DNA from: a virus
IMG/VR virus record: IMGVR_UViG_3300027714_000009
Coordinates: 26,379 to 90,378 of that record
Length of the DNA stretch: 64,000 nucleotides
Direction: 5' to 3' (one strand)
The translations under genes and the position numbers were made by a program. Shown here piece by piece: positions 56,918 to 60,160 of the stretch; position 1 is the first letter of the stretch, and every line of letters starts with the position of its first letter. The notes beneath the pieces were generated by a model, which was not told the DNA's origin, ran no database searches, and saw only the letters and a list, made by a program, of their open reading frames with translations.

Positions 56918-58396
56918 TTATTTGTCTTTTACTGTGGCTTCACCACCTTCTCCGCCCGATGCATTATTTTGCCAATTTTCTTGTGGGCTAAATTTGTGCA
57001 ACCATGACTTTGCAATATCCGGCTTAGTGACTTCTTTAATAAAGAAGTTAATAGGGATTCCGCAATCGCCTGCTGCGGCTTTAACAACGTAATCATCAAA
57101 TGCTGTCATTAACGAGTTAACATCAATAATCTTATTATTATCATTATCAACTGTTGACAAGTTAGAAACAACTCCAGTAATATAACTATTGTTTAACGAT
57201 ATAGCTTGAGCGCCTGCTTTGGCTGCGTTTGCATCGCTAGATATACTATTTACTGTTGAACTAGTAGAACCTTGAATTGCTCCAAGTTGTTCCATTACTT
57301 CACTTGCTGATGGTTTTAACTGACTGATACTAGTCTTGACTTGATTACTTTTTAACGAAGGGATAAGTCCCATTGTTACAAGCGAACAGTGTGATGATAA
57401 TTCTGAATTACTTAACATACTCTTAACACTATTGCTAAATTCTGCATCGGATCCAAATTCACCTTTTCCGTGTGCATAAAATGCTCCAAATTCCAGTACT
57501 GCTTTAGCTTGTGCTGATACTGCTGCTGAACTCTGTGCTGATTTTGTTTCTTCAACTTGTAGTACGTGTACCATTCCAACAAACGAACTACCTACTGTTT
57601 GTCCTGAAAGAAGAGACAGTACTTCACCAGCTTTAGCTGGTACGCTTGCTGCGGCTGTAATTTCTTCTGGTGAATTCATTTTATCAGGCATCAACGCATT
57701 CCATGCTGTTACTGCTTTTATTGGGTCCATTACAAACGGAGCAAATACTTCTGATATCTTATGAGTACACGTAGCTGTAATTACTAGTGTTCCTGCAATC
57801 TTATGCTTTGAAGTTTGAGCAAGTGTTGAACTTTTTACTGATCTAGCTACACTAGCACTAATCTTTGGGCCAAATATATATTTGACACTTCCAGATGCTG
57901 CTGTAGCTGTTGCTTCGGCGTGTGCGCCTGAATAATCATCTTCGTTTTCGTTACGAATAAATTGAGCATCAGTAATCATTGTATCTGAGCTGAGTGCTAA
58001 TTTTTTAATTTGGGATTTTTCCCAGTCTATTGGACTCTCTGGGTGAGATTGAATTGTTCCACCTGCTTTGTGTGCATCTGATTTAGCTTTCTGAATTAAA
58101 GGCTGTTGCTTTAATACTGCAGCACCATACTCAGTTGCGGCTTGGGTTAAACCTTCTTCTGTTTTAGTAATTGATTCAGCAAACTTTCCCAAAGCTCCTT
58201 TGGGTACATTTGAATTTATCATTTCTTGCATAGTCATATCTAACTTATGCTTTGAAGTAATTAATGCATTTAATTTTTCTTCAGCTTCATTTACTGGTTC
58301 TTGTTGTTGTGCGATTGTATTCAATAGTTTAATTTGATTTGGGTCAACTATGTTGCCTAATACTAAACCTGAATCGAAAGGGATTGTTGACGGCAT
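56918..58396 (-). CDS. 492-aa protein, possible MACPF/CDC-like fold
   Basis: AGGAG SD; N-terminal coiled coil; layout resembles the CDC core, ending GIPINFFIK. Confidence 0.55.
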   Translation of the reverse strand: MPSTIPFDSGLVLGNIVDPNQIKLLNTIAQQQEPVNEAEEKLNALITSKHKLDMTMQEMINSNVPKGALGKFAESITKTEEGLTQAATEYGAAVLKQQPLIQKAKSDAHKAGGTIQSHPESPIDWEKSQIKKLALSSDTMITDAQFIRNENEDDYSGAHAEATATAASGSVKYIFGPKISASVARSVKSSTLAQTSKHKIAGTLVITATCTHKISEVFAPFVMDPIKAVTAWNALMPDKMNSPEEITAAASVPAKAGEVLSLLSGQTVGSSFVGMVHVLQVEETKSAQSSAAVSAQAKAVLEFGAFYAHGKGEFGSDAEFSNSVKSMLSNSELSSHCSLVTMGLIPSLKSNQVKTSISQLKPSASEVMEQLGAIQGSTSSTVNSISSDANAAKAGAQAISLNNSYITGVVSNLSTVDNDNNKIIDVNSLMTAFDDYVVKAAAGDCGIPINFFIKEVTKPDIAKSWLHKFSPQENWQNNASGGEGGEATVKDK

Positions 58397-58473
58397 ATGA
58401 TTTTCTCCTATTCATTGCGACATATAAAGTTTATTATATACTGTGTTATTAATTATAACAATTGTATTTATGA

Positions 58474-58548
58474 TGGCAAAGGTGAACGGATTCGAACCGC
58501 TAATTTTGGATTTGGAATCCAACGTGTTACCATTAACACTACACCCCT
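58474..58548 (-). tRNA. trnW: tRNA-Trp (CCA), 75 nt, encoded CCA end
   Basis: AGGGGTG acceptor; D stem GTGT/ACAC; anticodon stem TTGGA/TCCAA with loop TT-CCA-AA; T arm AGCGG-TTCGAAT-CCGTT; G73-CCA. Confidence 0.95.
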
Positions 58549-58550
58549 AT

Positions 58551-58584
58551 AAAAAAAGCCCCCAACACGTTAATGCTAGGGGCT
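58551..58584 (-). terminator. Attenuator terminator (3:4 hairpin) directly upstream of tRNA-Trp
   Basis: AGCCCCTAGCAT-TAAC-GTGTTGGGGGCT then a T-tract ending 2 nt before the tRNA 5' end. Confidence 0.9.
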
Positions 58585-58610
58585 TGTAAAAAATAACCTT
58601 TTGATTAAAG

Positions 58611-58679
58611 TTACATCAAGACACACCTAGACATTGCTGTCCAGCACCAATAAAATGATTGTTGTGTATTCTTGTGCAT
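58611..58679 (-). CDS. Trp leader peptide MHKNTQQSFYWCWTAMSRCVLM (trpL-like)
   Basis: AGGA SD (58688-58691); TGG-TGC-TGG at codons 11-13; overlaps the alternative hairpins. Confidence 0.85.
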   Translation of the reverse strand: MHKNTQQSFYWCWTAMSRCVLM

Positions 58680-58717
58680 TGGGTAATTCCTGTTGTTGTT
58701 ATTTCTAGTATGTATTA

Positions 58718-58746
58718 ACTATAACATTATTATTTATCTGTGTCAA
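58718..58746 (-). promoter_or_regulatory. sigma70 promoter of the leader/tRNA unit
   Basis: TTGACA (58741-58746), 17 nt, TGn-TATAGT (58718-58723); a GATAAATA late-type motif lies in the spacer. Confidence 0.85.
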
Positions 58747-58846
58747 CCGTTTTCAAATAAAATCTGCGGAATAACACTTTTCTTTTTTGATCTAATTTTC
58801 GTTCTGCGATTAGTTGTAAGTATCTCATTAACGTGAACTTATCCAT
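58730..58846 (-). CDS. 38-aa basic peptide MDKFTLMRYLQLIAERKLDQKRKVLFRRFYLKTVDTDK
   Basis: AGGAG SD; start reassigned to ATG 58846, downstream of the riboswitch-like element. Confidence 0.7.
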   Translation of the reverse strand: MDKFTLMRYLQLIAERKLDQKRKVLFRRFYLKTVDTDK

Positions 58847-58871
58847 AAACACTCTCCTAATTAAAGTTAAG

Positions 58872-58918
58872 TGCGTTCCTTCGCTATTGCTACTTCCGTC
58901 CTGCGTCTGGATGAACGA
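58872..58918 (-). ncRNA. glnA-type (glutamine-I) riboswitch-like element
   Basis: CGTTC-A-TCC(N7)GGA-CGGAAGTA-GC(AATA)GC-GAAG-GAACG: P1 CGTTC/GAACG, P2, and P3 with AGUA/GAA E-loop. Confidence 0.75.
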
Positions 58919-58946
58919 CACATGTATTTATGACACCGCAGTCAAT

Positions 58947-58971
58947 AAAACAGGCCCCGAAGGACCTGTTT
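58947..58971 (-). terminator. Terminator of the major capsid gene
   Basis: AAACAGGTCC-TTCG-GGGCCTGTTTT. Confidence 0.88.
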
Positions 58972-58996
58972 CAATTTTAATTCTTCTAGTAATTTC

Positions 58997-60160
58997 TTAC
59001 TGGAAAGAAAGGTTACCTGCGTTAACACCAATTTTCGATAGGTAGTCAGCTGCGTTACCAAGTGATGAAGCCTGGTTGTTTAGCTCAACATAACCATAAC
59101 GTGTCATGAATGACACTGTTGGTTCGAAAGTTGATGGGTCAAGTACTGTGCCTGAAGACATAAGTGGGATGTATGGGCAATAGAATGCTGCCGCATCAAT
59201 TTCACCGTCGCCTTTATAGCCAACTAGTACTGGTGCATTATCTGCAGCATACTGGTCAACAAAGACACGCATAGTGTTGTTTAGTGTTCCAACAAACTTA
59301 GTGTTAGTAGGTGCTTCAAAAGGACCTTCAGTTGTTCTTGCGAACGCTGATGTAGTCGCTGATTGAAGTACTGTTAACATAGTTGGTGAAATAACAACGT
59401 AGTTACCTGCGCCACGTCTTGTACGTGTAGCAATGATGTTAGCTGAACGGTTAATTAGAACCGCTAATGCCGCGTGTTGGTCACCTACGAAAGTTGCAGT
59501 ACCTGATACTGCGCCTTGGTCATATGTGTCAACAGCTGCGCCAGCTAATGTACGTAGTGAAGTAAGAACTTCTTGGTCGATTTCAGCAGTAATTTCTTGT
59601 GCAAGTGCTTGCATAATTTCTGCTTCAACGTCCAAACCGTGCATTGAATTAGCATCTTGTGCTGCTTCAAAAGTCCAACGTGCTGATAGTTTACGTGTTT
59701 TCGCTTCTACTGTTTGCTTCAATACTTGGATTGATAGCTTACGTCCAGCTTGTGCTTCAAGACTTGAAGTTGAGCTTGGTCCGCCAGTTGATGCGTCACC
59801 TGAGTAACCTTTTGCAATAGCAAATGGTGATAGTGCTTCGTCGCCGGCTGCAACGCCTGCGCCTGCTTCACCATAACGTACTCTTAGTGTATGGATCTGT
59901 CCTACTGGACCAGTCATTGGCTGTACGCCAACTAGTTCGTTTGCAATAACAGTAGGCATAACACGGCGGATTACTGGTAAAATCACTTTGTTAAGTGAAG
60001 CTACGTTGCCTGCCATTGTTGTTCCTGCTGCGGCTGATTCTGAAAGATAGTTCTTAGTGTTTTCTAGAACTGATTCCATTACAACCTTTTTGTTACCGTC
60101 TAAACCGTCTGTTAGGGCGTCTTTTGTTACTGCCCAGTTTTCAAATAGATTCTGTGTCAT
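58997..60160 (-). CDS. gp23: Major capsid protein (gp23-like)
   Basis: GVQPMTGPVGQI, VEAKTRKLSARWT.EAAQD, EITAEIDQE, FYCPYIPL, MTRYG. Confidence 0.97.
   Translation of the reverse strand: MTQNLFENWAVTKDALTDGLDGNKKVVMESVLENTKNYLSESAAAGTTMAGNVASLNKVILPVIRRVMPTVIANELVGVQPMTGPVGQIHTLRVRYGEAGAGVAAGDEALSPFAIAKGYSGDASTGGPSSTSSLEAQAGRKLSIQVLKQTVEAKTRKLSARWTFEAAQDANSMHGLDVEAEIMQALAQEITAEIDQEVLTSLRTLAGAAVDTYDQGAVSGTATFVGDQHAALAVLINRSANIIATRTRRGAGNYVVISPTMLTVLQSATTSAFARTTEGPFEAPTNTKFVGTLNNTMRVFVDQYAADNAPVLVGYKGDGEIDAAAFYCPYIPLMSSGTVLDPSTFEPTVSFMTRYGYVELNNQASSLGNAADYLSKIGVNAGNLSFQ

Follow-up and report, generated by a model that had tools for sequence, protein, structure and literature searches.

A probable leader-peptide transcription attenuator, with a Trp codon as putative sensor, upstream of the tRNA-Trp gene in a marine T4-like phage

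The window, i.e., the whole stretch of 64,000 nucleotides (64 kb) that was analysed, belongs to an IMG/VR virus record of 90 kb, the completeness of which is estimated at 25%. Its source is a marine T4-like phage, and genes for a major capsid protein of T4 type (Pfam Gp23, E = 4e-100) and for a prohead protease lie upstream of the locus described here, a short leader followed by a tRNA-Trp gene on the minus strand. The interval from the capsid gene to the leader contains two further elements, namely a glutamine riboswitch (RF01739, 47.8 bits), a type of element already described in Melnitz-like marine phages in the accessible text of PMC9004378, and a 38-codon ORF having its end overlapping the leader promoter. 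The features of the locus, from 5' to 3', are as follows.

58718..58746, minus strand: sigma-70-type promoter TTGACA-17-TGnTATAGT (consensus scan, 11/12 matches, TG before the -10)
58746-58741, minus strand: -35 element TTGACA (consensus scan)
58738-58731, minus strand: T4-late-like GATAAATA in the promoter spacer (sequence)
58723-58718, minus strand: -10 element, 17-nt spacer from the -35 (consensus scan)
58687..58691, minus strand: Shine-Dalgarno (SD) sequence AGGAA, 7 nt 5' of the ATG (sequence)
58611..58679, minus strand: leader ORF of 22 codons plus TAA, MHKNTQQSFYWCWTAMSRCVLM (ATG at 58679, TAA at 58613-58611)
58641..58649, minus strand: putative sensor codons UGG-UGC-UGG (UGG at 58649-58647 and 58643-58641; the family keeps the first UGG)
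58627..58644, minus strand: 1:2 hairpin CUGGACA-GCAA-UGUCUAG, putative anti-antiterminator covering the second UGG (7 pairs, -7.5 kcal/mol)
58617..58634, minus strand: region 2, predicted 5' strand of the antiterminator, ending in the invariant family block GUCUUG (folding, alignment)
58593..58614, minus strand: small hairpin GUAACUUU-AAUCAA-AAGGUUAU, predicted apical part of the antiterminator, overlapping the stop codon (folding)
58573..58586, minus strand: region 3, CAAGCCCCUAGCAU, 5' arm of the terminator and predicted 3' strand of the antiterminator (folding)
58551..58585, minus strand: intrinsic terminator, 13-pair stem (58585-58556) plus U7 (58557-58551) (-20.6 kcal/mol; family covariation)
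58474..58548, minus strand: tRNA-Trp(CCA), putative regulated product (ARAGORN; Rfam tRNA, 59.8 bits)

All the features listed in a preliminary description of the locus were retrieved where it had placed them, by sequence, ARAGORN, promoter scan and folding, including the terminator with its U tract and the tRNA-Trp(CCA), the 5' end of which lies 2 nt past that tract. The U7 run contributes its first U's to the last pairs of the terminator stem. The leader promoter is the top-scoring site of a 4-kb consensus scan, and the same type of scan flagged no promoter-like site in the interval between leader and tRNA. A terminated RNA of about 165 nt is predicted, in which the ATG and the terminator are about 130 nt apart. 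Five further tRNA genes are present on the record (Thr, Leu, Ala, Ser and Glu); when their upstream regions were checked, neither a leader ORF nor a terminator was found, and they are preceded by protein genes or by a bare promoter. On this record the element is restricted to tRNA-Trp.

The whole leader folds better than all of its shuffled versions (200/200, z = -4.8). Three mutually exclusive structures had been proposed in the preliminary description, and three alternative structures indeed emerged as minimum-energy folds when the leader was folded with and without masking by a ribosome. With the ribosome masked on the first UGG, the minimum-energy fold of the window is the antiterminator 2:3 (-16.2 kcal/mol), and the same holds with the ribosome on the second UGG (-14.6 kcal/mol); in both cases the fold is exactly the 2:3 pairing that had been drawn. 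In this helix region 2 (58634-58617) pairs with 58586-58573 and is capped by the hairpin 58614-58593, with four bulges and an energy weaker than the family mean. When the ribosome is masked on the stop codon, the window value is -1.4 kcal/mol and region 3 is unheld. In the fold with the ribosome absent, the 1:2 hairpin forms, nested within a pairing between the ORF start and region 2, and region 3 is free.

Relatives of the leader were collected in successive searches. An exact 30-mer of the tRNA retrieved 5 contigs, and in two of these (L087 and L089) homologues of the ORF, hairpin and terminator are present; the other three (L088, L090 and L091) have the same tRNA-Trp without any leader. Among 80 loci around gp23 relatives, two contain a tRNA gene, namely L001 (a different tRNA-Trp, with its own promoter) and L040 (tRNA-Gly), and none a leader homologue; in a BLAST of window positions 58400-59000 against 86 loci, the leader ORF and terminator were matched by the window's own copy only. 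A 17-nt motif across the stop codon, outside the tRNA, yielded 75 loci, from which 32 members with 17 distinct cores were retained, and two further motif scans returned at least 120 and at least 118 rows. Altogether the family comprises at least 138 loci, at least 94 distinct leaders and at least 77 distinct peptides, the 138 loci listed being 35 viral, 102 metagenome or genome and the window itself. The full pattern was listed for 155 loci, of which 7 are chance matches, 7 are cut at contig ends and 141 are complete. The scan motifs excluded the tRNA; the later ones fixed the G-run, the GUCUUGA block and part of the terminator, so that the conservation of those letters is partly ascertainment, and part of region 2 was also set by the scan patterns. 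In the first scan, in which the G-run was unfixed, it is nonetheless found in 17/17 non-window cores, the window being the exception. A 17-nt stretch unique to regions 1 and 2 of the window had an unrelated GC-rich contig as its sole match, and no close relative of this variant was retrieved. Scanning of genome contigs gave 4 matches, three by chance and one (L376) a true member, located in a metagenome-assembled genome (MAG) labelled Neomarinimicrobiota; the same assembly holds a gp23 at 77% identity and therefore probably contains binned phage DNA. Since another 93 distinct leaders homologous to that of the window were retrieved outside it, the element is beyond chance. The family is abundant in marine viral contigs and, with at least 94 distinct versions, is unlikely to represent an oddity of a single genome.

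The 94 leaders listed share a common layout, consisting of an SD sequence, an ATG, an ORF of 17-24 codons that ends within a G-rich block common to the family, and then a small hairpin followed by a strong terminator. In one family alignment an AGGAA-like SD lines up throughout. The Trp codon lies at codon 11-13 (codon 11 or 12 in 91/94 leaders listed), and the stop, which is UGA in 93 of the 94, falls inside region 2. The expectation that leader ORFs with the cognate codon would be conserved upstream of tRNA-Trp in relatives was borne out, an ATG-started frame being intact through UGG in 140 of the 141 complete loci listed; the one left (L348) has a TAG immediately 5' of UGG and is the sole complete locus rejected on account of its Trp codon. 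The stop is a UGA within GUCUUGA in 135 of these 141 loci and is displaced in 5. At least one UGG is present in all 94 leaders listed, as demanded by the collecting filter, and a single one in 73 of them. When aligned as nucleotides, the leaders have the Trp codon at one of two adjacent codon positions, as UGG-UGC or UGU-UGG, which indicates that the kept feature is the Trp codon and not a fixed column. The distance from UGG to the stop ranges from 18 to 36 nt and is 24, 27 or 30 nt in 90/94 leaders listed; in the 3/94 where it is 18-21 nt, a stalled ribosome would abut the G-run.

The window copy departs from this layout. Compared with L093 (72% identity over 148 aligned columns), its differences fall exactly in regions 1 and 2: both strands of the 1:2 hairpin are replaced by different sequence, with the 7-bp hairpin kept. 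The window copy is also 1 nt longer between UGGUGC and GUCUUG, thus leading to a shifted frame, a TAA stop and a newly created second UGG. The two Trp codons of the preliminary description are therefore both present in the window, but the second UGG, like the C-terminal half of the peptide, is a feature of this copy alone, which is an atypical frame-shifted member of the family with a weaker antiterminator.

These features of the ORF bear on two other ways in which such a leader might work. In the tna leader, TnaC senses free tryptophan by nascent-chain arrest and blocks Rho. An arrest of this type, in which a peptide of the form W...P...G-(M/L)-S-UGA would sense free tryptophan or another ligand in the exit tunnel, stall the ribosome at the UGA and alter termination, is brought to mind by the leader peptide, which is short and followed by a UGA stop, with an invariant Trp, a frequent W-(C)-P-P and a near-invariant G-M/L-S ending. 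We regard it nevertheless as quite unlikely, because the variable Trp-to-stop spacing given above (18-36 nt, mostly 24, 27 and 30) is a misfit to a fixed exit-tunnel spacing, and conservation is at the nucleotide level rather than that of a protein, the GGU and UCU codons, unfixed in the first scan, showing no synonymous change among its 17 non-window cores. Moreover, the frame differs in the window and four other loci, and the terminator is intrinsic and not Rho-dependent. Under arrest at the stop, a ribosome held there would favour the terminator and high tryptophan would lower tRNA-Trp, a less coherent outcome.

T-box riboswitches, by comparison, are ORF-less and bind uncharged tRNA directly, controlling genes for synthetases, biosynthesis and transport. 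As in these, the state of a specific tRNA would decide here between terminator and antiterminator, and the cognate codon does lie upstream of a terminator/antiterminator pair, so that UGG might be read as a specifier for the CCA anticodon, with translation unneeded. That direct sensing of this kind operates here is hardly credible, given that SD, ATG, frame and stop are all conserved across length variants, that the leader spans just about 130 nt from ATG to terminator, and that the ten rows listed by Rfam for the window at E <=10 include no T-box.

The alternative structures were then assessed across the family. The terminator has a mean energy of -19.1 kcal/mol in the leaders listed and is 94.3% paired, with 53 double-change cells vs 14.6 in shuffles, a value reached by 0/500 of them. 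When UGG occupies the A site and the RNA is left free from +9 onwards, the terminator 5' arm and region 2 pair over at least 6 nt in 93/94 leaders listed, and the mean energy of the fold is -20.8 kcal/mol (94 leaders listed). When region 2 was shuffled the mean was -12.3 kcal/mol, and the real value was reached by 0/20 shuffles for 73/94 leaders listed; a pairing of at least 6 nt is still found in 69% of the shuffles, since the segment is G-rich. The mean falls to -1.1 kcal/mol (94 leaders listed) once the ribosome is placed at the stop. The antiterminator together with the small hairpin is 92.5% paired vs at most 60% in slid controls, and contains 5 double-change cells only, a value reached by 28/500 shuffles. 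Likewise, duplexes of region 2 with region 3 have nearly the same energy when cognate (-13.83 kcal/mol) or swapped (-13.63 kcal/mol; 697/10,000 permutations, p ~0.07, not significant). Being highly paired with few double changes, the antiterminator thus represents conserved complementarity and not proven covariation, and the stem covariation foreseen for the relatives was significant for the terminator but not for the antiterminator.

The pairing of the ORF start (CAAGAC) with GUCUUG is 84.8% paired vs at most 44% in slid controls, with no informative double changes. At the 1:2 position the relatives have a hairpin of a C-run with the G-run, with a dG of -3 or lower in 90/94 leaders listed; the 1:2 segment has a mean of -6.5 kcal/mol and a mean z of -1.4 (94 leaders listed). 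The full-length minimum-energy fold retains the terminator in 90/94 leaders listed, even with the ribosome on UGG, and therefore the switch must be kinetic, i.e., depend on folding order, like that of classical attenuators. When the ribosome is left out, the antiterminator is part of the minimum-energy fold in 82/94 leaders listed, so that termination without translation is well predicted for the window only.

The first gene downstream of the leader is a tRNA-Trp(CCA) on the same strand in 91/94 leaders listed, and in the remaining 3 the contigs end 66-132 nt past the terminator. The trpL-like architecture linked to tRNA-Trp, as claimed at the outset for the window, holds therefore in the family as well. 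The gap between terminator and tRNA is 0-26 nt in 66 of these 91 leaders; in 24/91 it contains a structured insert of 72-131 nt, for which no Rfam family was matched, and in one it measures 251 nt. On the other hand, the tRNA genes upstream and farther downstream vary between loci.

Codons near the UGG (W-2 to W+3) were counted in the 73 leaders listed with at least 700 nt of downstream sequence, and compared with the tRNA genes that follow tRNA-Trp: Pro in 38 arrays, Cys in 28, Tyr in 12, Met in 9 and Ile(UAU) in 9, with 20 of the 73 arrays having Trp only. A Tyr codon is found near the UGG in 12/12 of the arrays listed with tRNA-Tyr (p = 3e-7), an AUA codon in 9/9 of those with tRNA-Ile(UAU) and a Cys codon in 27/28 of those with tRNA-Cys (p = 4e-4), shared ancestry being only partly corrected in these association tests. 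Within one clade of 44, Cys codon and tRNA-Cys are split 18/12/1/13 (p = 0.001). A Pro codon is near the UGG in 37/38 arrays listed with tRNA-Pro; since almost all leaders have Pro codons, this association is not significant. For Met, Gln and Arg no codon/tRNA association was found in the same 73 leaders and codon range.

A promoter with at least 10/12 matches to the sigma-70 consensus was detected in 80/92 leaders listed with at least 110 nt upstream. Its typical form is GGTTGACA-17-TATAGT, and the -10 ends 22-38 nt before the ATG among the spacings listed. In the first 40 leaders listed, 6 have no such promoter, and in 5 of these 6 a tRNA gene lies upstream at a distance of at most about 190 nt.

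The presence of a promoter and a terminator of its own raises the question of whether the small ORF and terminator represent an independent peptide or small-RNA gene, the tRNA being made constitutively by read-through of a leaky terminator. Indeed, the terminated RNA of about 165 nt would be stable, structured and driven by a strong promoter, and trans functions of attenuator RNAs and leader peptides, such as rnTrpL/peTrpL in Sinorhizobium, are described in the accessible text of PMC6614838 and PMC7298713; an antiterminator without covariation proof is also compatible with this explanation. We consider such an independent unit improbable, as it leaves unexplained the constant tRNA-Trp downstream (91/94 leaders listed) and gives no account of a Trp codon kept while its column shifts, of neighbouring codons that track the downstream tRNA set, or of a stop located inside the segment complementary to the terminator 5' arm. 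In addition, a conserved peptide product is disfavoured by the frame-shifted C-termini of the window, L271, L320 and L355.

Taken as a whole, the element is likely to be a ribosome-mediated leader-peptide transcription attenuator having as output the same tRNA that it would sense. Transcription would start from the near-consensus promoter and a ribosome would translate the short ORF. If UGG is decoded quickly, the ribosome would reach the stop within region 2 and cover this region, allowing the 3:4 terminator to form, and transcription would stop 2 nt short of the tRNA. Under a shortage of charged tRNA-Trp, the ribosome would stall on UGG, covering region 1 and leaving region 2 free; this would pair with the terminator 5' arm into the 2:3 structure, capped by the small hairpin, and the polymerase would read into tRNA-Trp. 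If no ribosome is present, the 1:2 hairpin, aided by the pairing of the ORF start with GUCUUG, would hold region 2 and termination would follow. Newly made tRNA-Trp would speed the decoding of UGG and close the switch, with a resulting negative feedback on tRNA supply. The parts, their conservation, the constant association with tRNA-Trp and the alternative folds in silico are observed, and the stalling at UGG and its control of read-through are what we infer; on this reading the phage would probably make tRNA-Trp only when ribosomes read UGG slowly.

Leader-peptide attenuation is textbook knowledge, and its classic examples control genes for making or charging amino acids, the known class including the enterobacterial trpL and the his, phe, leu, thr and ilv leader-peptide attenuators. 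Like the trpL class, the phage element has a short SD-led ORF with product-cognate codons and a stop next to or inside region 2, predicted mutually exclusive 1:2, 2:3 and 3:4 structures and an intrinsic terminator before the putatively regulated gene. Unlike that class, it is phage-encoded, its product would be a tRNA gene instead of enzymes, and most members have a single Trp codon. The thr and ilvGMEDA leaders are multivalent, containing codons for more than one amino acid in keeping with the supply provided by the operon. Similarly, in the relatives the UGG is flanked by Tyr, Cys, Pro and Ile-AUA codons where the corresponding tRNA genes are present downstream; as a difference, the matching is with tRNA genes, down to an AUA codon for a UAU anticodon, and the window element would control tRNA-Trp alone.

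For the Rfam Trp_leader family (RF00513), no row was obtained for the window at E <=10, and the relative L121 scored 18.9 bits vs a cut-off of 41; by these scores the phage element is not homologous to Trp_leader. A likeness of the leader peptide to the rhizobial TrpL had also been suggested: the rhizobial peptide given there is correct, as the accessible part of PMC7298713 confirms, but the likeness does not amount to homology, RF00513 being unmatched and the rhizobial leader peptides not being conserved among themselves according to the same source.

In full-text searches of mostly open-access literature, none of the titles and abstracts listed describes an attenuator ahead of a tRNA gene, in agreement with the earlier statement that no attenuator-controlled tRNA gene is known in a phage. 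The nearest published case found is the cryptic trn operon of Anabaena PCC 7120, where accessory tRNA genes are induced by translational stress via promoter direct repeats (PMC8421152, accessible text) and of which TrcR is the repressor (PMC10272220, accessible text). In both systems an accessory tRNA set would be activated when translation is impaired; unlike the Anabaena operon, which is bacterial and under promoter control, the phage would use a leader attenuator, and the accessible text of PMC8421152 mentions no attenuation, leader or terminator.

A broader role can be envisaged for the proposed attenuator, and we put it forward as a tentative possibility that appears doubtful at present. 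The leader might serve as a sensor of decoding speed, making the phage tRNA supply self-limiting and acting also as an alarm when the host tRNA-Trp pool collapses. Host shut-off, tRNA degradation or an anticodon-nuclease defence would cause ribosomes to stall on the leader UGG, and a replacement phage tRNA would be produced; in the relatives, the codon-matched neighbouring tRNAs would be switched on too, and the system would go off once decoding recovers. As the leader codons can be rewritten, the device would be modular, with any tRNA gene controllable by its own demand. Already the likely reading given above, an attenuator with the sensed tRNA as its product, would represent a direct, virus-borne feedback loop on decoding capacity, would explain how phages avoid making accessory tRNAs when unneeded and would connect phage tRNAs in a concrete way with the depletion of host tRNAs, in addition to offering synthetic biology a compact element of about 200 nt for control by codon demand.

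Out of 24 RNA-library runs listed, four contig sets were compared with the window, and positions 58558-58689 are covered in none of the four. As a minor observation, in RNA-library contigs from one study (depth about 4, contigs only) the similarity to the window ends at 58557 and 58690, with unlike sequence beyond, which hints at a close strain having the leader replaced.

Further features were noted in the window between the T4-type major capsid gene (Pfam Gp23, gp23) and the leader ORF, and around the 3' end of tRNA-Trp and beyond it:

58870-58919, minus strand: glutamine riboswitch RF01739 (Rfam score 47.8 bits, cut-off 35)
58846-58730, minus strand: 38-codon ORF MDKFTLMRYLQLIAERKLDQKRKVLFRRFYLKTVDTDK, preceded by the Shine-Dalgarno sequence GGAG, downstream of the riboswitch
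58731-58738, minus strand: T4-late-promoter-like sequence, TATAAATA or GATAAATA, in the spacer of the sigma-70-type leader promoter
58433-58479, minus strand: a pair of overlapping promoter-like sites, one TTGCCA-16-TATAAT with TG, the other TTGTTA-17-TATAAT
56918-58396: 492-aa ORF following these sites

The riboswitch lies directly past the capsid gene, and the final codons of the small ORF run into the -35 box of the leader promoter. The same order of capsid gene, riboswitch and start of a small ORF was found in several relatives. Glutamine riboswitches of Melnitz-like phages have already been published (PMC9004378); in the Melnitz phage records, the matching stretch is annotated as SsrA. 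Inspection by eye of the family loci (e.g., L267, L124, L175 and L235) revealed the T4-late-like sequence at the same position in many of them, and its presence in the spacer suggests that the leader may carry overlapping early and late promoters.

Downstream, both promoter-like sites begin within the 3' end of tRNA-Trp, upstream of the 492-aa ORF, for which neither a Pfam family nor a tblastn match in the phage collection was found.

In some relatives, a structured RNA of 72-131 nt is interposed between the terminator and tRNA-Trp, as observed in locus L121 (3154-3241, minus strand) and in at least 23 other distinct loci (e.g., L275 and L145); the window has no such insert. The inserts belong to three unrelated types (17, 5 and 2 loci among the matches listed), all of them closed by a stem that is between 9 and about 20 bp long, and no Rfam match was obtained. 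The type A insert resembles a cloverleaf whose loops CUGCAA and UUGCAG are complementary; its fold z is -5.3. A permuted alpha-type tmRNA is also present in L121.

In two samples from a single study, RNA-library contigs matched the flanks of the leader at 99% and 95-99% identity, the matches breaking off at 58557 and 58690 and giving way to unlike sequences, each the reverse complement of the other. These data, consisting of contigs only at a depth of about 4, would fit a close strain in which a plain hairpin replaces the leader.

One family member, L376, with a leader identical to that of the viral contig L250, comes from a MAG labelled Candidatus Neomarinimicrobiota, where it is located on a contig of 335 kb. 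Two contigs of the same assembly (entries L380 and L381) carry gp23 at 77% identity, and the MAG probably includes a large phage genome that was binned together with the bacterial one.

The 15-nt motif scan also caught a separate conserved non-coding element, unrelated to the leader family, in which a CAGTCC...GGACTG stem enclosing GGGGGTATGTCTTGATGG is followed by a terminator and then by AAAGGAAAGGGGGGAAAGGGGGG (among the matches listed, loci L165, L167, L187, L199, L203, L224, L228, L230, L231, L240, L253 and L256).
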